From assembly GCA_963779415.1 (NCBI GenBank), contig CAVZYA010000002.1:1536001-1600000 (forward strand): a stretch of 64,000 bases of DNA, in the 5' to 3' direction. This stretch comes from an uncultured Acidobacteriota bacterium (GTDB lineage: Bacteria > Acidobacteriota > Thermoanaerobaculia > UBA5066). A model generated the notes under the pieces. It made no database searches, was not told the origin of the DNA, and was given only the letters and a program-made list of their open reading frames with translations. Within the stretch, counting starts at the first letter, position 1. Each line of letters opens with the position of its first letter. Made by a program: the position numbers and the translations under genes. Below are positions 47,237 to 57,339 of this stretch, piece by piece.

Positions 47237-47296
47237 GGATGACGATACCGCGTCCCGCGGCGACCGGCGCGTGTCCGCAGCAGAGCGTGGTCAGAC
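47237..47296 (-). other. Degenerate attC
   Basis: + strand GGATGAC GATACCGC GTCCCGC GGCGA...GTCCGCAGCAGAGCGTG GTCAGAC aligns with intact attC 55258; contains the DHFR stop. Confidence 0.6.
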
Positions 47297-47812
47297 GGCG
47301 ACCTCGTACTCACTCTGGACGAGACCGCTGGCATACTGACGGGTCGCAACGTGCCTCAGGAGGATATCGTGCGGCGTCGCGCCAAAGAGCGGGATGCCGC
47401 TGCCGATCAGCACGGGAACGCGCGTGATGGTGAGGCGCTGGATGAGCCCGGCCCGAAGAAAGCGTTGAATGGTGATCCCGCCATCCACGTAAAGATGCCG
47501 GATTCCCCGAGCGGAAAGCCGGGAAACGACTTCGGCCGGCGCCCCGGCCATCCGCTCCACGACGGCTCCGTCGGGGGCCGGCGGAAGCGTTCGGGTGCTG
47601 AGGACGAAGACGGGCTTTTCTCCATAGGGCCAGGATGGAAACTTCGCGACGACTTCGAATGTGTTCCGCCCGATGACAAGAGCGTCGACCGTGGCGAAGA
47701 ACTCGTCATAGCCATGAGGTTCGCCGCCGTCGGCCGGCAGAAAGTCGAAGCTCCCGTCCGCACGTGCAATGAAGCCGTCAAGACTCGTGCCGACGAAGAC
47801 GGATGCTTTCAT
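47291..47812 (-). CDS. Dihydrofolate reductase/RibD C-terminal family protein
   Basis: SLDGFIA, GRNTFE, YVDGG, PVLIGSGIPLF. Confidence 0.9.
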   Translation of the reverse strand: MKASVFVGTSLDGFIARADGSFDFLPADGGEPHGYDEFFATVDALVIGRNTFEVVAKFPSWPYGEKPVFVLSTRTLPPAPDGAVVERMAGAPAEVVSRLSARGIRHLYVDGGITIQRFLRAGLIQRLTITRVPVLIGSGIPLFGATPHDILLRHVATRQYASGLVQSEYEVAV

Positions 47813-47832
47813 TACTCAGGCCTCCTGTTGCG

Positions 47833-47854
47833 GCCTGACGATATCAAGCTCCGC
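47833..47854 (-). other. Half attC remnant (R'/L' side only)
   Basis: + strand GCCTGAC GATATCAA GCTCCGC; no matching second arm before the next stop codon. Confidence 0.55.
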
Positions 47855-47873
47855 TGCTTGTTCGACGGATGGC

Positions 47874-48392
47874 TCATTCCCGGGCCCGCCGGGTCCAATG
47901 CCAGAGCCCACGGGTGGCCTCCTTGGGCAGAGGTCGTCCGAGCTGACGCGCGATCAGCACCAGTTGGCCACGATGGTGAGCCTCGTGCGCCACGAAGTAG
48001 CCGAGAAAGTGCTCCAGGTCCGTCGGGAAGTTCTGCCAGGTACTTCGAGGAACGCTGCCCCCGCGTGAAGCACCGAGCTCGATGAGACGAACGATCCCTT
48101 CACTGCTGCGCGACAGGGCCCGCAGGAGCGCTGCGGGAGAGACTCGGCGCAGATCGACGAGCGGAGGCGGGATGATGCCGTGGCGTCCTCCCAGGGCCTT
48201 GATCCACCGACATCGACTGTTATGAAGGTGCGCCGCGACCATCCTCACGGTGCGGCGTGGGGCCCCGGGGACCGACATGGACCAGAGATCTGGCGGGAGT
48301 CGCTCGATCAAGTACGTCGTCACCCGATTGCTCGTTCGCCAGGCGCTGACGAGCCTCGACGGGTTCCCGGCTCTCCGTTCCATCCACGTCAC
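47874..48392 (-). CDS. DinB family protein
   Basis: AHLHNSR, HEAHHRGQ. Confidence 0.88.
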   Translation of the reverse strand: MTWMERRAGNPSRLVSAWRTSNRVTTYLIERLPPDLWSMSVPGAPRRTVRMVAAHLHNSRCRWIKALGGRHGIIPPPLVDLRRVSPAALLRALSRSSEGIVRLIELGASRGGSVPRSTWQNFPTDLEHFLGYFVAHEAHHRGQLVLIARQLGRPLPKEATRGLWHWTRRARE

Positions 48393-48413
48393 GGCCTCGA
48401 TGTCTCCCTATCC

Positions 48414-48473
48414 GTCGAACGATATCAAGCTCAGTGGTGACAGCAGCGAGTCCGCCGGAACGCGGGGTCAGAC
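48414..48473 (-). other. Degenerate attC
   Basis: + strand GTCGAAC GATATCAA GCTCAGT...GCGAGTCCGCCGGAAC GCGGG GTCAGAC. Confidence 0.7.
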
Positions 48474-48890
48474 GCCGCGCCGGGACCTGGCCCGTGCGAC
48501 GAGGCCAAGCAGGTGCGCGACGCCAATGCCGAGGGATAGTGCCGAGAAGGCCGCCTGACGAACGGGATACCCGGCGCCGCGCCACAACCGAATGAAGTCC
48601 GGAACGAGCACGAGGCCGCGAAGGATATAGACGCCCGCGATGAAGACCAGCACGGTGCGAACGAGGGGAAGGGGCGCCAGGACGCCGGCGCCAGAGAGGG
48701 CATAGGCGCCCCAGATGAAGAACATGACTGCGATTGCGGCCGTGATGAGGGCCGGAGCGAGGGAACCTTGGCGCGCCTGCAGTGCCAGGGAGGAGGCTCC
48801 GAAATAGAGGTATCCCGGTGCTCCGATGAAGATGATGACGACATGCAGGAGTGCTATGGCGAAGCTCCCGGTGGCGCCGCGGTGAGCCAA
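48468..48890 (-). CDS. Cassette membrane protein
   Basis: LHVVIIFIGAPGYLYFGA, YALSGAG, IAGVYILRG; stop in R'' box; start uncertain. Confidence 0.7.
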   Translation of the reverse strand: MAHRGATGSFAIALLHVVIIFIGAPGYLYFGASSLALQARQGSLAPALITAAIAVMFFIWGAYALSGAGVLAPLPLVRTVLVFIAGVYILRGLVLVPDFIRLWRGAGYPVRQAAFSALSLGIGVAHLLGLVARARSRRGV

Positions 48891-48941
48891 GCGCGTGTCC
48901 GGGTCGGGATGAGAGGCTGTGACTTCAGGTTCCCTCGCGGT

Positions 48942-49011
48942 GTCTAACGCTCAAGCTAAGCCGATGTGACCGCCGGGGGCGGCCACGGTCGGCTTGAGCG
49001 CCTGGTTGGGC
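48942..49011 (-). other. attC site (70 bp)
   Basis: + (bottom) strand GTCTAAC GCTCAA GCTAAGC...GCTT(G)AGC GCCTG GTTGGGC with extrahelical G. Confidence 0.92.
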
Positions 49012-49046
49012 AGTACCTCATGCCTTCTTCCAGAGTGACTCCCGGC

Positions 49047-49607
49047 TCACGTCCGGCCACGGCCCTGTGACTTCGGGGCGCTGGACCGGAGATTCTCCGC
49101 GACCGCGGCCTGGATCAAGGCCTTGAACGCCTCAGCATCGAGCACCTCTCCCTCCCTGATGTCGATGGCGCGACGCGTGTTTCCATCGAGGCTGGAGTTG
49201 AAGAGCCCCCGAGGGTCCTCCAAGGAGGCACCCCGGGCGAAGGTCAGCTTGACCACCTGTTTGTAGGCCTCTCCGGTGCAGACGATCCCAGCGTGGGACC
49301 ATACGGGCACCCCCAATGGGTTGGTGGGCTTGATCCATTTGCACTCCTCCACGATGTCCGGGTCCGCCTCGTGGATAAGGCGGCGAACCTCCGCCAGGGT
49401 CTCGGCGCGCCAGCCACCCAGAGACCGGATCCGCTCGTCGATGAGATGAGAGGCCGCCATCGCGGTCGCGCGCTCCGCTTCCGCACCGGGCTTGGCCTTC
49501 GCGCCTGCCTTCGGCGGAGACTTGGCCCCGGCGGCCGGCTTGCGTGGCTTGCTCGCGCGCGACGTGCCCTTGGCCTTCGGCTCACTTCTCTTTGGTTTTC
49601 GCGCCAC
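49047..49607 (-). CDS. DUF1801 (YdhG-like) cassette protein
   Basis: WRAETLAEVRRLIHEADP, CTGEAYK, FNSSLDGNTRRAIDI. Confidence 0.88.
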   Translation of the reverse strand: MARKPKRSEPKAKGTSRASKPRKPAAGAKSPPKAGAKAKPGAEAERATAMAASHLIDERIRSLGGWRAETLAEVRRLIHEADPDIVEECKWIKPTNPLGVPVWSHAGIVCTGEAYKQVVKLTFARGASLEDPRGLFNSSLDGNTRRAIDIREGEVLDAEAFKALIQAAVAENLRSSAPKSQGRGRT

Positions 49608-49632
49608 GATTCATTCTTCAATTTGTTGTCAT

Positions 49633-49731
49633 GCCCAATGACGACCGGCGTTCAGCCGCTTGCACGAGCCCTTCTGCGCGTGCTCGCACAGAGCGGGGCG
49701 AGTGCCAGTCGGCTGCAACGGCACGTTAGAG
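49633..49731 (-). other. attC site with damaged crossover core
   Basis: GCCCAA(TGA)C GACCGGC GTTCAGC...GCTGCAAC GGCAC GTTAGAG. Confidence 0.8.
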
Positions 49732-49762
49732 GGCCCCGCAGACGGAATGGCGAGAGGTGACC

Positions 49763-50410
49763 TCAGATCGACCGCTCCATGAGAATGGTGGCCTCCGCAC
49801 TCTCGATAGACGCGAAGACTGCCTGGCCATGGAACTGGAAAGTCTTGTAGGGTGCGGACAGAACGTCGTTGAAGCCCAGCTTCCGGAAGACATGCTGGGA
49901 CACACTGCCTGTCGCTTCGGTGACTGCGGTGCGGTAACCAAGGTGCTCACCATTAGCGAGGCAGCTTGAGATGAGCTGGTGGGCGATACCTCTGCCAGAA
50001 GCTGAGCGCGCGACACCTAGCATGAACAGGTGGAGGTGTGTGCCGGGGGCAATGTCCCGTGTGGCGCGGTACGAAGTGTCGAGGCTGTCGAGCAAGGCGC
50101 CGATCGGAGCGAAGGTGGGTGCAAGAAGGTGGAGACCGTCTGGCGTTGGCGTGCCGAAGTCATCGGTGAGCAGTGCACCGACGAGATCGCCCGTGAAGGT
50201 GTCGCGTGCGACCAGGGTGAGCCGCTCAGAAAGCGCCTTCGGGACGAAAGCCGGCAGGAAGCCCTGGATTTCGGCTATGGAAAGACCGAGTGCCACGGCG
50301 GGCGGGTCATAAAGGCTGAACACCTCAGCAAGCAGGCGAACCATGGAATCCGCTTCTGGCGCTTGGAGGAGCCCGTATTCGATATCACCGACAACACTGA
50401 GAGGAATCAT
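49763..50410 (-). CDS. GNAT acetyltransferase cassette (AANAT-like)
   Basis: HLFMLGV...SGRGIA, TEATGSVSQHVFRKLGF. Confidence 0.85.
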   Translation of the reverse strand: MIPLSVVGDIEYGLLQAPEADSMVRLLAEVFSLYDPPAVALGLSIAEIQGFLPAFVPKALSERLTLVARDTFTGDLVGALLTDDFGTPTPDGLHLLAPTFAPIGALLDSLDTSYRATRDIAPGTHLHLFMLGVARSASGRGIAHQLISSCLANGEHLGYRTAVTEATGSVSQHVFRKLGFNDVLSAPYKTFQFHGQAVFASIESAEATILMERSI

Positions 50411-50424
50411 GTGTCTCCTGGGCC

Positions 50425-50490
50425 ACCTAACGCTTCGCCGATAACCTGCGGGGCGCGAAGCGATCCGTCAGGTTCATCGGCAGGTTAGGC
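50425..50490 (-). other. attC site (66 bp)
   Basis: ACCTAAC...CCGATAACCTG...CAGGTT(C)ATCGG CAG GTTAGGC. Confidence 0.9.
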
Positions 50491-50627
50491 AGTGCGCCTC
50501 GCTGCCAGATATCGTGGTTCTGCGTGAAGTGGGTACTCGTCCATTCGACCTCGCAATAGCCCCTTCGGAGAAATCCGGAGGGGTCTTCGCATTCGGCCGC
50601 CGTTGACGCACAGTTTGGCAGATAGGG

Positions 50628-51305
50628 CTAGAGAGAGATCGACGGGTTGTGCGCATATTTCAGGCAGCCTCGGAACCTGCGCGCCCAGATTCGCTTGAGG
50701 AGCAGCTTCCGTACGAGCCATGGCATCCCTGCGAAATGAAACTTCTGCTCGTCGTCGGTGAGGGAGTGCACGAGCAGCATGAGTACCGACGGGCCGCCGA
50801 CGCGCTGCCCGTGCTTCGACGATCGCACCTCGAGCGCGAGGACCTCGTCGGCGCGCAGCAGCTTCGCCAGGGCCGTCCCGTCGAGCGCCGACTCCTCCGC
50901 GTCGAGGTGCGGGAACAGAACGTTTCGAACTTCGTCCGCTGTCCGATGCAGCGTCTCGTACGATCCGCCCTTGCGGAACTGCGCCGTGGCCGTCTCGAAC
51001 GCGCTCAAGCGGCCGAGGAGCTTCTCGTGATCGGCGCGCCAGCCCACGACGTCCGAGGCGTACGCGGGCAGCGAGGCGCGTGCGGCGACCTCCGTCAGCT
51101 TCGGGAAGATGATCTTCTCTTCACCGTCGTGGTGGGTGTGCAGGAAGCGCGTGAAGAGCGCACAGAACTCGGCGAAGTCGGCGCGATCGCCCTCGGGCAC
51201 GGGGGCGGCTGAGACGCGCACGATCGTTTCGAGGCTGCGCCGAAGAGCTGTGTGGATCCGGATCAGGCTCTGGGCCATCAGGTCAGACGGCGCCGACGCG
51301 TTCAT
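50628..51305 (-). CDS. Hemerythrin-domain protein
   Basis: IHTALRR, HHDGEE, DH, HLDAEE. Confidence 0.85.
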   Translation of the reverse strand: MNASAPSDLMAQSLIRIHTALRRSLETIVRVSAAPVPEGDRADFAEFCALFTRFLHTHHDGEEKIIFPKLTEVAARASLPAYASDVVGWRADHEKLLGRLSAFETATAQFRKGGSYETLHRTADEVRNVLFPHLDAEESALDGTALAKLLRADEVLALEVRSSKHGQRVGGPSVLMLLVHSLTDDEQKFHFAGMPWLVRKLLLKRIWARRFRGCLKYAHNPSISL

Positions 51306-51544
51306 GGGGTCACCATGGCCGACGGGCGGCCGAGCGGAAGACCTTCGCACGTCTCGAACGGGGTGCTTGACATGCCTCCACGCTACCACGAACGCGCCGA
51401 CGCAACTTCGAGATGACCACTCAATGTCGCGTGTATCTTCGCTGGGTGTTTCTGCCCAAAGAGCGAGCCGGCTTCGTCAGGTTCTTCGGCACATCGGGCT
51501 TCGACATGATTCAAGTCTGTCTAACGATAGGACCTTGCTCCGGT

Positions 51545-52384
51545 TTAGTTGACACCGCTGTGGATAGGGGCCTGGGCTTCGAAGATGGCCGGAGGAAGGT
51601 ACCCAAGCGACGAATGGAGCCGCTTCTGATTGTAGAAGCGGACGTAGTCGAGGAGGGCCGTCCTGAGTTCGGAGTCGGTCTGGAGCGTCATTCCGAAAAG
51701 GCACTCCGTCTTCAGCGAGTGAAAGAACGACTCCATGTGAGCGTTGTCGTTCATCTGCCGCGGGCGATTCATGCTCTGTAGAAAGCCCCGGCGGGACAGC
51801 GAGGCTCGAAGGTCGAGGGCGGCGTATTCGATTCCCCGGTCGCTGTGGAAGGTGACGCCGGGGGAGGGGCGCCGCCATCGGACGGCGTGAGAGAGGGCGC
51901 GCCGGGTGAGCGAAGCGTCCCGATTCCGGCCCAGGCTCCAGCCGAGGACCCTTCGGGAGTGCCGGTCCATGACGACGGCGAGGTACCACCAGCGGCCGGC
52001 GACCCGGACGTAGGTGACGTCCGCCACCCAGAGCTGGTTCGGGCTCGTTGTCGTGACGCCGTGGACCGTGTTCGGATGCACCCGATAGAACGCTTTCTGA
52101 CCCACCCGCGACCGGCGATAAAGACGGGCCGAGCGGCCCTGGAGTTGCGCCAGCCGCATCAGGCGGGCGACCCTTCGGCGGCCGACCGGGACCCCTTGCC
52201 GCCCGAGTTCCCGCGTCACCCGGGGGCTGCCGTAAAGCCCCCTGGCCTCCTGGAACACCGCGAGAACCCGTTCGGTCATCGCCGCATCAGACGCCGTTCG
52301 GCGGCTCGGTCGTCTGCTCCGCCAGGCATAGAACCCGCCCCGCGTGACGCCGAACCTCCTGCACATCAGGCTCACCGGGAACAA
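51545..52384 (-). CDS. IS3 OrfB DDE transposase
   Basis: YGSPRV, WVADVTY, FHSDRG, DNAHMESFFHSLKTE; probably joined to OrfA by a -1 frameshift. Confidence 0.93.
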   Translation of the reverse strand: MFPVSLMCRRFGVTRGGFYAWRSRRPSRRTASDAAMTERVLAVFQEARGLYGSPRVTRELGRQGVPVGRRRVARLMRLAQLQGRSARLYRRSRVGQKAFYRVHPNTVHGVTTTSPNQLWVADVTYVRVAGRWWYLAVVMDRHSRRVLGWSLGRNRDASLTRRALSHAVRWRRPSPGVTFHSDRGIEYAALDLRASLSRRGFLQSMNRPRQMNDNAHMESFFHSLKTECLFGMTLQTDSELRTALLDYVRFYNQKRLHSSLGYLPPAIFEAQAPIHSGVN

Positions 52385-52728
52385 GCTCCGGTTCGCCTCG
52401 AGGAACGCGAAGACGTCCCCCGTAACTCGCGGGCGAACCGGATCGCTCTTTTTAGGAGTTCGTGCTCCATCTTCAGCCGCTTGTACTCGCGCTCAACCTC
52501 CCGTAGCCGTTGGAGCTCACCCACGGCTTTCACGTCCAGAGCCGGCAAGGCACCACGAAGCTCACCGTCCCGAGCCTGCTTGCGCCAGCGCGACAGCATG
52601 AACGGGTGAATGCACAGTGACTCCGTCACGTCCCGGACCAGAACGCCGGGCTGCTGACTCAGTTGAACAGCCCGCAGCTTGAACTCCTGGCTGTAGCTTC
52701 TGACTCTCCGGGGTCCTGCTTTTCCCAT
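52372..52728 (-). CDS. IS3 OrfA (HTH)
   Basis: YSQEFKLRAV, LSRWRKQ, leucine zipper. Confidence 0.9.
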   Translation of the reverse strand: MGKAGPRRVRSYSQEFKLRAVQLSQQPGVLVRDVTESLCIHPFMLSRWRKQARDGELRGALPALDVKAVGELQRLREVEREYKRLKMEHELLKRAIRFARELRGTSSRSSRRTGACSR

Positions 52729-52856
52729 CGTGACCTCTCTAGTTAGCTCAGAGTGTCAACGATACCGAAGCAACCTCCGAGTCCGCTGCAACGCGTGGTT
52801 AGACGGCATACGGTGGGGCGATGGCGGTGCGGGATGCAGAGCGACCGCCGCTAGAT

Positions 52857-53129
52857 CTAGGTTGACTGACGCACGGCAGCTGTCTCGTTGCGCTGAGCCG
52901 CCTTGGCGCCGGTATAGATGAACAGCGATACGCCGAGCAATATCGCCGGCAACAGAGTTCCTGCGGCGAGGAGCGGCAGGAAAGATGCGTCCGACGGAAG
53001 GCCCGCCTGGATAAGCAGCACGCGAAGAGCCCAGGCCACGAATGGACATGGGACAGCGAGAATGAACCAGAGACGAGCCCACCGAAAAAGCCGCGACGAT
53101 TTGGACGACGAGGCGTGTTCTCGAAACAT
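52857..53129 (-). CDS. Small 2-TM cassette protein
   Basis: ATG 3 nt after the GTTAGAC core; cassette bounded by 12-bp inverted GTTAGACGGCAT. Confidence 0.6.
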   Translation of the reverse strand: MFREHASSSKSSRLFRWARLWFILAVPCPFVAWALRVLLIQAGLPSDASFLPLLAAGTLLPAILLGVSLFIYTGAKAAQRNETAAVRQST

Positions 53130-53253
53130 GCCGTCTAACGATAGGCGTTCAGCGGCGAGCGAAGCGAGATGGAATGAGAAGGCCGGCCTCCCGTCGCAGT
53201 CTGAAAATCAGCTGCAGGTCAGACGGGCTCGAGGCCCAGAGAGGAGACCGGCC

Positions 53254-54406
53254 ATGAGGAAGCGTAGCACCGGAGCGGCGACGATGGACCCAACCCCGAA
53301 GAGGACGAGGAGGTACGAAGGGACGGAGACGGAGGGCAGGGTGTCCTCGAGCAACCTGACCGTGGGCGTGGACCTTGGGGATCGGGTGAGCCACGTGTGT
53401 GTGCTGGACTCCAAGGGAGAGATCGTCGAGGAGATGCGTGTGGCAACGACGAGGAGCGGGTTGAGGCGAGCGCTGGGCGGCGAGCGCCTCGGGAAGTGCC
53501 GGATCGCCATGGAGGTCGGGACGCACTCGCCGTGGGTGAGCCGACTGCTCGAAGAGATGGGGCACGAGGTGCTGGTGGCCAACCCGCGCAAGCTGCGGTT
53601 CATCTACCAGAGCCGCGGCAAGACGGACCGGGTGGACGCACGATCGCTGGCGCGGGTGGCGAGGATGGACCCGGCGCTGCTCTCGCCGGTGGAGCATCGG
53701 TGCGAGCCGTTCGCGCAGGACCTGGCCGTGCTGCGGACGAGGGACTTGCTGGTGCGGACCCGGGTGAAGCTGATCGGGCATGCGCGGGGAGCGGTGAAGG
53801 CCACGGGACACCGGTTGAAGGCGAGCTCGACGCGGAGCTTCACCGTCGAGGCCGGACCGATGCTTCCGGAGGAGCTGAAGGAGACGCTGGGGCCCGTCCT
53901 CTCTGCGATCGACGCCGTGTCGGAGCAGATCCGCGCCCTGAACCGGAAGGTTCGCGAGCTGGCGAAGAAGAAGCACCCGGAGACGGAGCTGCTGCGGCAG
54001 GTGCCGGGAGTGGGCTTCATCCTGTCGCTGGCGTTCGTCCTGACGCTGGAGCGAGCGGACAGGTTCGAGAAGAGCCGGATGGTGGGGCCGTACCTCGGGC
54101 TGGTGCCCGGACGCCGGCAGAGCGGCGACAGCGATCCGCAGCTGAGGATCACGAAGGAGGGCGACGACTTCGTGCGCCGCCTGCTGGTCCAGGCAGCCCA
54201 GTACATCCTGGGACCGTTCGGCCCCGACTGTGACCTTCGTCGGTTCGGCCTGGCGCTGGAGGCACGCGGCGGAAGGTACGCCAAGAAGCGAGCCATCGTC
54301 GCCGTGGCCCGGAAGCTGGCGGTCCTTCTGCATCGACTCTGGAGCTCGGGAGAGGTCTACGACCCGGCTCGCCAGGTGCGCCCGGCCCGACGCATCGGCG
54401 GCGTAG
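53254..54406 (+). CDS. IS110 DEDD recombinase/transposase (likely +1 frameshift near 54385)
   Basis: GVDLG, AMEVG, KTDRVD, VPGVG, YLGLVPGRRQSG; GAGGAG RBS; likely true end ...PDASAA* at TAG 54404-54406. Confidence 0.9.
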
Positions 54407-54504
54407 AGAACGACGAGAGTTTCTTAGAAAGAAGAGAGAGACGGGAGCCCCGACAGTCGGGAACGGTGAGAAGGAACGCAATACATGGAATCGAATCGAC
54501 GCCC

Positions 54505-54660
54505 TGTCTGGGCGACTGCGAAGCGGACTCGGGTCCGGAGGGCCATCCGGCTGCTCCAAGAAGACCGACAGCGAGATGGCAGCGCCCTTTCAGCTCGGAC
54601 ACCCTCATGCACCGAGCGCCGCAGCGCGGCGACGAGAGTGCGAATGGAAGCGAGGTGATC
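54505..54660 (+). ncRNA. Putative bridge/seek RNA of the IS1111 element
   Basis: Two stem-internal-loop units carrying AGCGGACT, AGCGAG (target) and ATGGAAG (donor) matches; boundaries approximate. Confidence 0.75.
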
Positions 54661-54700
54661 GATTCGACGTCCCCAGGGAGACCGAGCCCCCGCTTCTCAC

Positions 54701-54706
54701 TTGACA
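54701..54706 (+). promoter_or_regulatory. -35 box of the IS circle-junction promoter
   Basis: TTGACA just inside IRR; a GAAGAT -10 would form 18 bp downstream only after end joining. Confidence 0.65.
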
Positions 54707-54751
54707 CGACCGGGCCTTCTCATGGAAGTCCGCTGCAGCGCGGGGTTAGGC

Positions 54752-55248
54752 GGCAGCGCCAGAAGACGTGGGCGGCGAATAGCCCAGCAGGATGCTGCGC
54801 AAGAAGACGGCCGTCCCGAGGCGTTACCGGAACCGCGACAATGCTGCCCATTCCAAGGGCGGTAACGATGAAGATGGAGAAAGAACAGGAACACGCCCCA
54901 GGCGTCTTCTAGCGGAGGTGGGAAGACCCATCTGAAAGGACGATAAGAGTGGCGTAGAGGGACGACGGTGCCGCCCACAAAGAACGATGCCTCCGAACAG
55001 GAAGCTGTGCCTGATGCTCGACATGCGGAAGGCTCTGAGTTAGAGGCGTCCAGAGGAGTAGGCCAAAGCGGCGACCAGGAATGCTCCCGGATAGCGGAGA
55101 GCGAGAAGACTCGGACGCTCATGAAACCCTGCCGCGCGGAGCGTAACCAGGTTAGGGCGGGATGCCCCAGGACACCCCAAGTAAGGGCGAATGCTGCAAC
55201 GAGCGAATGCTGAAACACGGAGCTTTGTAGAAAGCGAGGTCGCGACAT
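54752..55248 (-). pseudogene. Cassette membrane-protein gene with several frameshifts
   Basis: ATG 55248 just after attC; hydrophobic segments spread over three frames; cassette bounded by inverted GTTAGGCGGC. Confidence 0.45.
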
Positions 55249-55257
55249 GAGGTCGCC

Positions 55258-55337
55258 GCCTAACGATATCGAGTTCAGCGGCGAAGAGGAAGGAGCGCAG
55301 CGACTGACGATGAGTCCGCTGCAATGAGGTGTTAGGC
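55258..55337 (-). other. attC site (80 bp)
   Basis: GCCTAAC GATATCGA GTTCAGC...GAGTCCGCTGCAAT GAGGT GTTAGGC. Confidence 0.92.
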
Positions 55338-55725
55338 GGCAGTGGTGGACGAACGAGCAGGGCCTGAATGGCCCGCCAGTGACGCCGGGCTCCGAACATT
55401 GCCCCCGGCCGAGGGAGATGGAGAGAAACGGAGAACGCGCGAGAGAGAGATGGTGCTTTGATTTGGCCGAGGATGACTCGCGAAGCCACGTGAGGTTCGA
55501 AACGGCCCACTGAGCCGCTGGCGATAGCAGATTGCGTGACACGGCAGGCGCGACTTCCTCCCTACAGATTGTGGCGAGGTTTCCTAACGAGTAACCGGAC
55601 GCCGTAAGCACCGCTGCGATACGCGCGTAGTCCGTGGGTTGCAACTCGGTGTCGAGCCAGAATTCCGACAGCGCCTGCCATACAGGCTGACGTCGCTCGA
55701 CATCAAGAAGGGCGTCACTCAGCAC
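55338..55725 (-). CDS. First cassette: DUF7079-like hypothetical protein (3' end frameshifted or uncertain)
   Basis: RRQPVWQALSEFWLDTEL...SGYS...EEVAP...NLLS; GTG 7 nt after the core site. Confidence 0.6.
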
Positions 55726-55732
55726 GTTCGCC

Positions 55733-55776
55733 GCCCAACTAGTAGTAGACGGACGTTGACAAGGGTGGATAGACGG
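55733..55776 (-). other. Putative attI
   Basis: - strand CGTCTAC-TACTA-GTTGGGC (degenerate L, 5-bp spacer, R); no attC hairpin; extra TAGACGG repeats. Confidence 0.7.
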
Positions 55777-55936
55777 AAGAAACGTCGGTGTAGCGGCCGG
55801 GGAGGAAGTGCGACGGCGAGGCGGGAAGCCCCTGATTAGACGGGCTTTCTCGCTGACAGGATTGCGCAGACTCTGGAGTGATAGGCCGAAAAAGATTCGG
55901 CTTAGTGCCGTCGGTGTTAGGCCGACGACAAGAGGG

Positions 55937-56902
55937 TCAGAGCGCATCGAGGGGGCTCCGGACACCGCGTCCTCCTGCCTGGTTCAGGACGTGAGTGTAG
56001 ATCATCGTGGTCGTCACATCCCGGTGTCCCAGCAGCTCCTGGATGGTCCGGATGTCGTAGCCCCCTTCCAGGAGATGCGTCGCGAAGGAGTGGCGGAAGG
56101 TGTGGCAGCTGACCGACTTCGGGATGCCGGCTTTCCCGGCCGCCTCCTTGACCGCTTTCTGGATGGTCGTCTCGTGAAGATGGTGGCGGCCGGTGCGTCC
56201 GGTGCGCGGATCGGTGCTGAGGCCGGGCGCCGGAAAGGCGTATTGCCAGGCCCACTGCCGGCTCGCGGCCGGGAACTTCCGCGTCAAAGCATCGGGGAGC
56301 CACGTCTCGCCGAGACCGCGCTTGAGATCGGCGTCGTGAAGAGACTTCACCTCGACCAGATGCTGGCGAAGCGTCTCGGAGAGGGAGGCCGGAAGCATCG
56401 TCCGTCGGTCCTTCTGCCCCTTGCCGTCGCGGACGAGGATCTGGTTGAGGGCGAAGTCGAGGTCCTTGACGCGGAGGCGAAGGGCCTCCATCAGCCGCAG
56501 GCCGCTGCCGTAGAGAAGGGTGGCGACGAGGCGCGGGGCGCCGTCGAGGCGGGAGAGGACGGCCTTGACCTCGGCGGGGGTGAGGACGACGGGAAGGCGC
56601 GCGGGGCGGCGGGCGCGGACGACGTCGCCGAGAGACTCGAGCGGCTTCCCGAGGACGTCGCGGTAAAGGAAGAGCAGGGCCGAGAGCGCCTGGTTCTGGG
56701 TGGAGGCGGCCACCTTCTTCTTCACCGCGAGGTCGGTGAGAAAGGCATTGATCTCGGCCTCGCCCATCTCGTCCGGATGGCGCTTGCCGTGGAAGAGGAC
56801 GTACCTTCGGACCCACGCGACGTAGGCCTCCTCGGTCCGCAGGCTGTAGTGTCGCGCGCGGAGGGCGGCGCGGAGGCGGTCGAGAAGGCGGGGCTTGTCC
56901 AT
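55937..56902 (-). CDS. intI: Integron integrase
   Basis: [31 protein letters not shown] and the IntI-specific insert [24 protein letters not shown]. Confidence 0.97.
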
Positions 56903-56913
56903 GGCGTTGCTTC

Positions 56914-57339
56914 TTACTTCCGTGCCGATCCTGCTCTTTCTTCCCCGCTCTTGCGCTTCGTGCGGCGGCGGGACTCCGGCCGCCGGCGTGGCCGGGCTCC
57001 CTTTGGCCGGGCATGTCTCGGCTCGTAGACGCCGAGCGTCCCCCCGCCGGGGAGGGTGACCCGGGTCAACAGCCCCCAGCCCAGGTTCTGAACGGGACTG
57101 CAAGGAACCCCGTGCCGGGCCATCGCGGAGACGAACGCTTTGGCGTCTTCGCAGATGAAATAGAACTCGTGGAGGTCGTTCTTCCGGGACGGATGAACCG
57201 CCACCTCCGCGGGCGGCAGGCCGAAGATGAGCCAGCTGTCGCCGACATCGACGTGCGGGAGCCGGAGGACGTCCCGAAGGAAGGCCCGGTCGGCCTCGGG
57301 CTTGCGGCTGTAGATGATCGAATGGGCGCCCGTGATCAT
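56914..57339 (-). CDS. VOC/glyoxalase family protein
   Basis: [11 protein letters not shown]...[10 protein letters not shown]...GWG...LGVYEPRH. Confidence 0.85.

Follow-up and report, generated by a model that had tools for sequence, protein, structure and literature searches.

The IS1111-attC group of insertion sequences, with ISPa21, ISPst6, ISKpn4 and ISPa25 among its members, was reportedly described by Tetu and Holmes in 2008 and by Post and Hall in 2009. A candidate of the same kind was analysed here in a stretch of 64,000 nucleotides from an uncultured Acidobacteriota bacterium (GCA_963779415.1, contig CAVZYA010000002.1, positions 1,536,001 to 1,600,000 of the forward strand), which is called the window and in which an IS110-family insertion sequence interrupts an integron attC site. 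In excerpts of PMC3001079, the IS1111-attC elements are said to form a monophyletic subgroup, and their insertions are placed near the 5' end of attC, antisense to the cassettes. According to parts of Siddiquee et al. (2024; PMC11187229), the seekRNA of IS1111 elements lies downstream of the transposase gene (tnp), and ISKpn4, ISPst6 and ISPa25 target attC. The seekRNA of ISKpn4 and ISPst6 co-purifies with the transposase and carries segments that match the attC target on both strands, the one for the top strand coming first, and the same matches and fold were predicted for ISPa25 (PMC11187229, same parts). Many IS1111 bridge RNAs are placed in the right end, often with their donor-binding bases in a multiloop, in sections of Durrant et al. 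(2024; PMC11208160).

The element in the window shares with the IS1111-attC group its sub-terminal inverted repeats, a long non-coding region after tnp, the specificity for attC and the orientation antisense to the cassettes. As in the seekRNAs of that group, two short segments match both target strands in the same strand order, and the same half of the site is involved. The position and the host are different. The window element lies at the hairpin apex, about 16 nt inside the box, whereas the group is described at 'one end' or 'near the 5'-end' of attC; moreover, the present host is acidobacterial, whereas the hosts of the group are proteobacterial. Among the IS110-family genes of 72,556 plasmids, identity to the window transposase did not exceed 33.2%, and it was 24.5–26.8% for the named elements ISEc11 (IS1111-type according to the title of its reference) and IS5708 (which we take to be IS1111-type). 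The ceiling of 33.2%, which is a pairwise value and not a tree, argues against close kinship with ISPa21 and ISPst6; ISKpn4 and ISPst6 were compared by description only. Elements of IS1111 type that target attC, and their seekRNAs, are already published, and the window element is a new, distant lineage of a known kind. An earlier note on this stretch had recognised the known layout of IS110 bridge or seek RNAs with a CT core, which agrees with the published IS1111-attC group and with the seekRNAs of ISKpn4 and ISPst6.

The bridge RNA of IS621, an element of the IS110 group, is also said to have been treated by Hiraizumi et al. in 2024. IS621 resembles the window element in its DEDD recombinase, its structured RNA with separate target and donor guides, and its CT core; the two sides of the target are read on different strands, and the target guides vary on a constant scaffold. 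The IS621 RNA is encoded in the left end, ahead of the gene, and both of its binding sites are simple internal loops, whereas the predicted RNA of the window lies in the right end with a donor guide in a multiloop, and the order of the strand matches relative to tnp is reversed (for IS621, excerpts of Durrant et al., 2024; PMC11208160). ISPpu9 of Pseudomonas putida, as presented in parts of PMC12288879, has an RNA gene downstream of the transposase and solo copies of that gene (ssr9), as does the genome of the window, and it sits in REP sequences, whereas the window element sits in attC. In a limited literature search, no paper was found that deals with this lineage or with bridge RNAs of acidobacterial integrons.

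The element is very probably an IS1111-type, RNA-guided member of the IS110 family, lying antisense to the cassettes of a chromosomal integron, where it occupies the apex of an attC hairpin. The claim of the earlier note that the window holds an IS1111 element with a bridge or seek RNA for its attC was borne out by family models, architecture, and covariation of stems and guides. The attC at 53133–54751 was split by the element of 1,560 bp at 53169–54728. The left side reads GTCTAAC...GAAGCG-AG followed by ATGGAATGAGAAGGCCGG, and the right side reads CCGGGCCTTCTCATGGA-AG followed by TCCGCTGCAGCGCGGGGTTAGGC. The left half resembled the repeat families D1, D2 and D8 of the window, and the right half was a member of a six-copy repeat family (47272, 48449, 49707, 52780, 54727 and 55313) whose copies end in GTTAGRC or GTCAGAC. 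When the two halves were rejoined by a script, an attC-like hairpin of -16.3 kcal/mol (DNA parameters) was obtained, with the outer boxes paired, a central stem, and the element at the apex. Because of the attC repeat family, the hairpin and the nearby integron integrase gene, the setting is a chromosomal integron array. The G+C content of the array was about 64%, compared with about 70% for the flanking chromosome. The neighbouring cassette open reading frames (ORFs) lie on the minus strand and tnp lies on the plus strand, so that the element is antisense to the cassettes.

The boundaries of the element were drawn from conserved ends common to relatives whose flanks differ. One genome per species was scanned for relatives, and 597 candidate stretches gave 200 confirmed relatives, the best 80 of which (51–78% amino-acid identity) were analysed. 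Most of these 80 occurred in metagenome-assembled genomes (MAGs) of Acidobacteriota (including Thermoanaerobaculia), Anaerolineales and Gemmatimonadota. The ends were placed by pattern in 69 of 81 elements (80 loci and the window) and failed in 12. The left end of the placed elements was nearly constant, with AG followed by AT(G/T)GG(A/G)ATGAGAAGGCC..., and so was the right end, ...CTTGAC(A/T)...GGCCTTCTCATGGA-AG; the flanks differed. In the window, the left junction was GAAGCG-AG (AG at 53167–53168) followed by ATGGAATGAG, and the right junction was CATGGA-AG (AG at 54727–54728) followed by TCCGCT. The core dinucleotide AG (CT on the other strand) was present at both junctions, and there were no long terminal inverted repeats. 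Most relatives also had AG at their junctions; of the 69 elements for which both ends had been located, L055 and L068 were without it at the expected left position. The sub-terminal inverted repeats were recovered by local alignment of upstream against downstream sequence across loci, as ATGAGAAGGCC(GG) paired with (CC)GGCCTTCTCAT. They are 11–13 bp long and are kept in the family, for a span of about 7–17 bp in the IS1111 criterion. The left end measures 85 nt (53169–53253), and about 320 nt separate the position of the relatives' stop from 54728. This longer non-coding region downstream of tnp is the IS1111 layout, as given in sections of Siddiquee et al. (PMC11187229) and Durrant et al. (PMC11208160). 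In most of the family, the right inverted repeat was preceded, at a distance of 4–10 nt, by the motif CTTGAC(A/T). Its TTGACA could be the -35 box of a circle-junction promoter, but the spacing to any -10-like hexamer looks too long; the best such hexamer, judged by eye, would be 23 nt away after circularisation. As a separate observation, a short palindrome, TTTCTTAGAAAG, was seen at 54420–54431, directly after the stop codon of the relatives, and related palindromes (TTCTTAGAA, TTCCAGGAA and TTCTTAGGAAG) stood at the same place in distant relatives.

The protein belongs to the DEDD/IS110 family. It matched PF01548 (DEDD_Tnp_IS110) at 9e-21, PF02371 (Transposase_20) at 3.6e-17 and NCBIfam NF033542 ('IS110 family RNA-guided transposase') at 1.5e-62, with 211.8 bits against a cut-off of 140 over profile positions 1–342 of 343. 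The C-terminal motif of IS1111 elements, given as GL-P----S(t)G in parts of Siddiquee et al. (PMC11187229), was present as GLVPGRRQSG and was conserved in the relatives. Up to the relatives' stop, the protein has about 383 aa, including an N-terminal extension of about 35 aa, where the IS1111 criterion gives 330–350 aa; the transposases of the relatives had 344–393 aa from the start of the match. The frame from the ATG at 53254 stays open to 54912, past the end of the element. The relatives stop at a TAG, whose equivalent in the window (54404–54406) lies in another frame, and the stretch from GAGGTCTAC to this TAG was 2 nt shorter in the window than in its closest relatives. The other frame of the window ends in ...ASAA*, resembling the tails of the relatives. 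The C-terminal frameshift reported earlier for this gene is therefore present in the sequence, with the relatives' TAG out of frame; with the genome in 3 contigs, it may be either a real frameshift or an assembly indel.

It is entirely possible, if somewhat doubtful, that the element is a dead relic, which arrived by RNA guidance and whose transposase now reads through the former stop into the RNA gene, the RNA region being a fossil. The relatives' proteins end 8–20 residues after EVY(D/E)P, and the window frame has no such stop; the genome holds a single full copy, and truncated relatives with only the 3' part exist (the orphan copy L002, and L088 with transposase residues 310–369). The conserved part of the protein is nevertheless intact over nearly the whole profile, the length of the protein tail varies among relatives (that of L074 is long), the stems and guides of the RNA are all intact and still match the flanks, and the change of frame could be an assembly error. 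Present activity is doubtful because the stop is lost, there is one full copy in the genome, and there is none in the one sampled genome of the same genus. Such a loss concerns present activity and not the identity of the element, and it can be held together with the reading of an RNA-guided IS1111-type element given above.

The long non-coding end has a conserved predicted secondary structure. Alignment A1 comprised 36 sequences of the 3' region, namely the window, an orphan copy and 34 distinct relatives. Three stems appeared in its RNAalifold consensus, namely the one that closes the target loop, GCAC/GTGC, and a long-range pairing of a 5' CGCC with a 3' GGTG; the inner stem of the target loop was added to this consensus before the pairs were counted. 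Over 22 pairs, 93.0% of 791 cells were paired, compared with 23.7–43.5% when the 3' partners were slid by 1–3 columns, and 59 cells had changed on both sides, compared with 8–15 in the slid controls. Changes on both sides were found in 11 of the 22 pairs, and none of 500 shuffles reached any observed measure. The slid control is fairer than the shuffles because related sequences can beat shuffles without structure. Helix 2, the closing stem of the target loop, was 97.8% paired, with 4 pairs changed on both sides, and helix 3 had 2 such pairs. Helix 4 (GCACC/GAGTGC) was 99.4% paired and varied little; a single pair, in 2 sequences, had changed on both sides. Several positions include G-U pairs (e.g. 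GU:7, columns 13/204), which is consistent with reading of the RNA from the tnp strand.

According to these results, the earlier note had drawn the target-loop unit right to the base, with both its closing stem and its GGTC/GACC stem, and its GCAC/GTGC stem was present as helix 4. Its CTCG/CGAG outer stem for the second unit did not hold: the closest relatives carry CATG there, and the stem is not kept. CACC/GGTG as the outer donor stem was discarded when the individual sequences of A1 were inspected. Covariation spoke for an outer stem that pairs the 5' CGCC with the 3' GGTG; this stem was retained, and it closes a multiloop that holds the 3' donor guide ATGGAAG. The coordinates of these features are given in Table 1.

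Table 1. Coordinates, in the window, of the insertion sequence, its predicted RNA and its integron setting.
Feature	Position	Strand	Details
IS1111-type insertion sequence	53169..54728	+	1,560 bp; one AG core copy counted at right end
Left attC part	53133..53168	+	Box GTCTAAC 53133-53139; left target flank; end ...GAAGCG + core AG 53167-53168; read directly
Left sub-terminal inverted repeat	53174..53186	+	ATGAGAAGGCCGG; begins 5 nt inside left end (ATGGA)
Transposase gene (DEDD / IS110 family)	53254..54406	+	Conserved part to ~54357 (...LWSSGEVYDP)
Predicted bridge/seek RNA core	54500..54657	+	Outer stem P1: CGCC 54500-54503 with GGTG 54654-54657
Target-binding stem-loop	54510..54587	+	Closing stem GGGCG-A-CTGC with GCAG-CGCCC
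Target-loop closing stem	54510-54519 with 54579-54587	+	GGGCGACTGC with GCAGCGCCC
5' target guide	54521..54531	+	(A)AGCGGA-CT-CG; reverse complement of core + right flank (AG-TCCGCT); would pair with tnp-sense strand
Target-loop inner stem	54532-54535 with 54563-54566	+	GGTC with GACC
3' target guide	54570..54578	+	AGCG-AG 54570-54575, identical to left flank + core; would pair with other strand; then ATG
Donor-region inner hairpin	54609..54641	+	GCACC 54609-54613 with GAGTGC 54636-54641; encloses variable hairpin
3' donor guide	54644..54650	+	ATGGAAG; identical to right end + core (CATGGA-AG 54721-54728)
TTGACA	54701..54706	+	Within motif CTTGAC(A/T), just upstream of right inverted repeat; conserved in most relatives
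Right sub-terminal inverted repeat	54710..54723	+	CCGGGCCTTCTCAT, then GGA + core AG 54727-54728
Right attC part	54729..54751	+	Right target flank TCCGCTGCAGCGCGGG; box GTTAGGC 54745-54751; family D1, 90% identical to reference copy
IS3-family ORFs	52372-52728; 51545-52384	-	HTH_Tnp_1 ORF; rve ORF
Integron integrase gene	55937..57103	-	TIGR02249 1.3e-140, 468.2 bits vs cut-off 265; Pfam PF00589 + PF13495; context, outside element

The conserved 3' region is very unlikely to act as DNA, through transposase binding sites or a junction promoter, instead of as RNA. Pairing in the stems is maintained where both sides have changed and where G-U pairs occur, which on the other strand would be A-C mismatches, and according to parts of PMC11187229 this region of published IS1111 elements yields an RNA that is co-purified with the transposase. 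A role as DNA would agree with the conservation, as sequence, of the CTTGAC(A/T) motif and of the inverted repeat near the right end, and a promoter for a separate RNA was not found: the scan of 53000–54900 (linear element) gave 0 sigma-70-like sites. The same interval held one terminator-like site, which was on the minus strand and at the chance rate.

Two segments of the predicted internal loop match opposite strands of the target around the core and covary with the target, as expected of guides. In the window, AGCGGACT at 54522–54529, extended by CG to 54531 (AGCGGACTCG), matched the right flank and the core, and AGCGAG matched the left flank and the core. The ATG after the latter equals the first bases of the element and may be a handshake-like guide. 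Over seven positions, the 5' guide AAGCGGA-CT agreed with CAGCGGA at 6, and the 3' guide GACAGCG-AG agreed with CGAAGCG at 4, namely the four next to the core. When the non-coding region of the window was shuffled by dinucleotides, 13 of 1,000 shuffles contained a match to the opposite strand as long as the observed 10 nt, and 148 of 1,000 contained a 9-nt match to the tnp strand; the 6-mer AGCGAG was not significant by itself. The support from the window alone was only modest and was not convincing by itself; the observation exceeds chance because of the covariation across relatives.

In the relatives, the segment after the invariant GACTGCG ends in CT, preceded by the reverse complement of the right flank, and the segment before (A)T(G/T)GCAGC reproduces the end of the left flank together with AG. 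For the 66 elements, which carry 35 guide types, the mean match of the 5' guide was 5.57 of 7 positions with its cognate flank and 2.19 with non-cognate flanks, and that of the 3' guide was 4.38 and 1.78, respectively; these means include one mis-anchored guide type (the L023 group), which was scored 0. A fixed register rule, anchored on CT and blind to the target, was then applied to the 35 rows of A1 with mapped ends, which do not include the orphan copy, and 33 rows had the CT. Rows without a known left flank, or with a 5' guide at most 2 mismatches from that of an earlier row, were dropped, leaving 14 types. Between the 5' guide and the right flank of its own element, 84 of 98 positions agreed (28.6 in shuffled pairings; sd 5.6, max 62), and between the 3' guide and the left flank, 64 of 98 did so (26.4 in shuffled pairings; sd 5.0, max 49). 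Neither value was reached in 20,000 permutations. These permutation figures somewhat overstate the significance because kin are not independent, an effect lessened by letting a single row represent each distinct guide. The 5' guide extends over the 6–7 nt adjoining the core and the 3' guide over 4 nt, and the four core-adjacent positions of the 3' guide matched in 86–100% of the types. A reading of the 5' guide in fixed alignment columns was rejected: it gave 42 of 112 matches, a value reached by 79 of 20,000 permutations, and MAFFT had split the CT by one column between rows.

Furthermore, covariance model R1 was built from A1, and a search with it returned 12 loci, one of which was the window. 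The 5' guide and the right flank were readable in 6 of the 11 new loci. At these six loci, which had been used for neither the rule nor the model, the 5' guide matched 7, 7, 7, 7, 7 and 5 of 7 positions. The guide CAGCGGA-CT was found in three of the genomes detected by R1, and in the two with a readable right flank the element sits at TCCGCTGCA...GTTAG, the same attC arm as in the window. The guide positions proposed by the earlier note (54522–54529, 54570–54575 and 54644–54650) were all recovered in the sequence and in the map from alignment to window, and the covariation of guides with targets that it had named as a check was found, in the permutation comparison as well as at the six further loci.

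That the matches between non-coding region and flanks are due to chance, or are a by-product of GC-rich, palindromic attC-like sequence with the target chosen by the protein alone, is scarcely credible: the shuffled 9-nt matches, the other 6–9-mers that match at 54518, 54621 and 54647 and the unremarkable single-sequence fold speak for it in the window alone, whereas in relatives with unrelated targets the same two positions of the structure vary together with the flanks, no permutation reached the observed values, the loci unused for the rule follow it, and other window matches, e.g. GAAGCGAG at 54647, are not kept in the closest relative.

The donor side was read in the same alignment. The 3' donor guide equalled the right end plus core in 32 of 33 rows (L020 was discordant), and a joint change was found in two rows (L049 and L076), in which the guide and the right end were both ATAGAAG. 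The other donor guide had been said to match poorly, and only a weak signal was obtained even in its best register, as given below.

Several results weigh against the reading of an RNA-guided, attC-directed element. The fold of the window's own sequence (54493–54700) was no better than that of shuffles (z -0.58). No Rfam family reached its gathering score in the whole window, and at E values up to 10 the matches within 54300–54800 were at chance level only. In the guide zone, 2 of the 35 rows (L046 and L061) were without CT, and the guide of L019 matched only at an offset of 1 nt. The 5' donor guide, in the best of 30 registers, matched at 55 of 95 positions, compared with 48.6 in shuffled pairings, and 103 of 20,000 permutations reached this value; the window's own match was 3 of 5 in that register. 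The 12-nt target was enriched neither in the window, with 12 matches at up to 2 mismatches compared with 19.2 expected, nor in the genome, with 38 at up to 1 mismatch (1 perfect) compared with 52 in the reversed control. Only one other attC of the array (48445–48456) came within one mismatch of the target. Finally, given the transposase frame that lacks a stop until 54912 and the single full copy in the genome, the window copy may be inactive.

The fit of the guides to the host array was partial. The guide for the right flank fitted the attC arm TCCGCTG at three other attCs of the window, exactly at 52780 and 55313 and with one change at 48449, and the left flank differed at most of the other attCs with this arm. 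The recurrence of GAGTCCGC at 48448, 52779 and 55312, within the attC repeat family, had been pointed out earlier and was found again. The description of the element as tuned to the host attC family stood for the right-flank guide, which fits a conserved attC arm, and failed for the full 12-nt target, which was not enriched.

The analogous elements IS621, ISEc11 and ISKpn4 allow a mechanism to be proposed. A structured RNA, which the transposase would bind, would be transcribed on the tnp strand from the long 3' non-coding region. In its internal loop, the 5' guide would pair with the tnp-sense strand of the right target flank and core, and the 3' guide of the same loop would pair with the opposite strand of the left flank and core. 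The multiloop closed by the outer stem would hold at least one donor guide, ATGGAAG, matching the right end and core. At the AG core (CT on the other strand), the transposase would then join the target to the circular form of the element, and any current mobility of the window copy would follow this route.

Variation among relatives bears on how such targets may change. In one Thermoanaerobaculia MAG there were five copies, with an amino-acid identity of 78%, and all occupied the same position in a site of the same kind; both attC boxes were present in 4 of the 5, and the fifth had the right box only and a different left flank. This MAG had one integron integrase above the cut-off. At L074 (L074:1-4029), in another Thermoanaerobaculia MAG, the element lies in the same kind of attC, adjoining a GTTAGGC box and about 11 nt further along. 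Its flanks are ...GTCCGCTGCAACG-AG on the left and GGGTTAGGCGAC on the right, and its 5' guide, CTAACCC-CT, matches at 7 of 7 positions, which represents an apparent case of natural retargeting within one site. L013 adjoins a similar attC box, and L054, L046 and L070 have one box nearby (putative attC sites, judged from the boxes alone). R1 copies were found in 18 of 120 other sampled genomes of the class, or in 19 of 121 with the window's own, and no copy was found by the R1 search in the sole sampled genome of the same genus. In another genome of the class (G113), there were 17 matches to the RNA model over several contigs, 15 of them with identical scores, which suggests a recent burst of one element.

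In the window's own genome, R1 found the window site and one other. The latter is an orphan RNA gene with a right end on another contig (G000:C1:751208-751395, minus strand, locus L002), 72% identical to that of the window; a search alongside it found no remains of a left end or tnp. Its stems and guides are intact and are followed by TCCGCTGCAGCGCGTTGTTAGAGG, an attC right half. Upstream there is an AT-rich stretch, in a genome of 70% G+C, with a perfect TATAAT about 60 nt away and a 16-nt direct repeat (TGACCCCACTATTGCG, twice), and further upstream lies GCCTGACGATATCGCGTT, which resembles an attC left half. Remnants of this kind recur, because L088 (G096:C77:5322-8509) and L097 keep the RNA gene and right end with only a piece of the transposase (residues 310–369 and 33–117, respectively); L088 lies in an attC with the same arm, TCCGCTGCA. 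A wider, joint reading is unlikely: the orphan would be a maintained and separately transcribed guide that, at the same attC arm, either served the single transposase in trans or was a decoy, and relatives in Acidobacteriota, Chloroflexota and Gemmatimonadota would repeatedly have retargeted one scaffold to different positions of the attC hairpin. If this were true, integron arrays would be a recurrent landing site that was reached independently of the proteobacterial IS1111-attC clade.

Other features of the array were also observed. The integrase gene shares its strand with the cassette ORFs, and the array (47272–55341) lies downstream of it, which is not the usual divergent layout. This arrangement presumably resembles the 'inverted integrase' integrons of some non-proteobacterial phyla. 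An IS3-family element (51545–52728, minus strand) directly adjoins the attC at 52730–52808 and is a second insertion sequence in the same cassette array. On the integrase side, the cassette at 54697–55965 (minus strand) carries a DUF7079 domain (9.8e-24); the listed ORF that contains this domain is over-long in G+C-rich DNA and overlaps the end of the element.

The finding leaves the current picture of either field, bridge-recombinase mining or integron biology, unchanged. It indicates that an RNA-guided IS1111-type element very probably occupies integron attC sites in environmental, non-proteobacterial genomes, and it adds to integron biology another element able to split cassettes in chromosomal arrays. 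For bridge-recombinase mining, the 35 guide types on 66 elements form a natural series, with a near-constant donor end and scaffold and differing target guides. The target code can be read from this series, with about 4 nt specified to the left of the core and 6–7 nt to its right, so that a ready data set on the programming of IS1111-type guides is provided.

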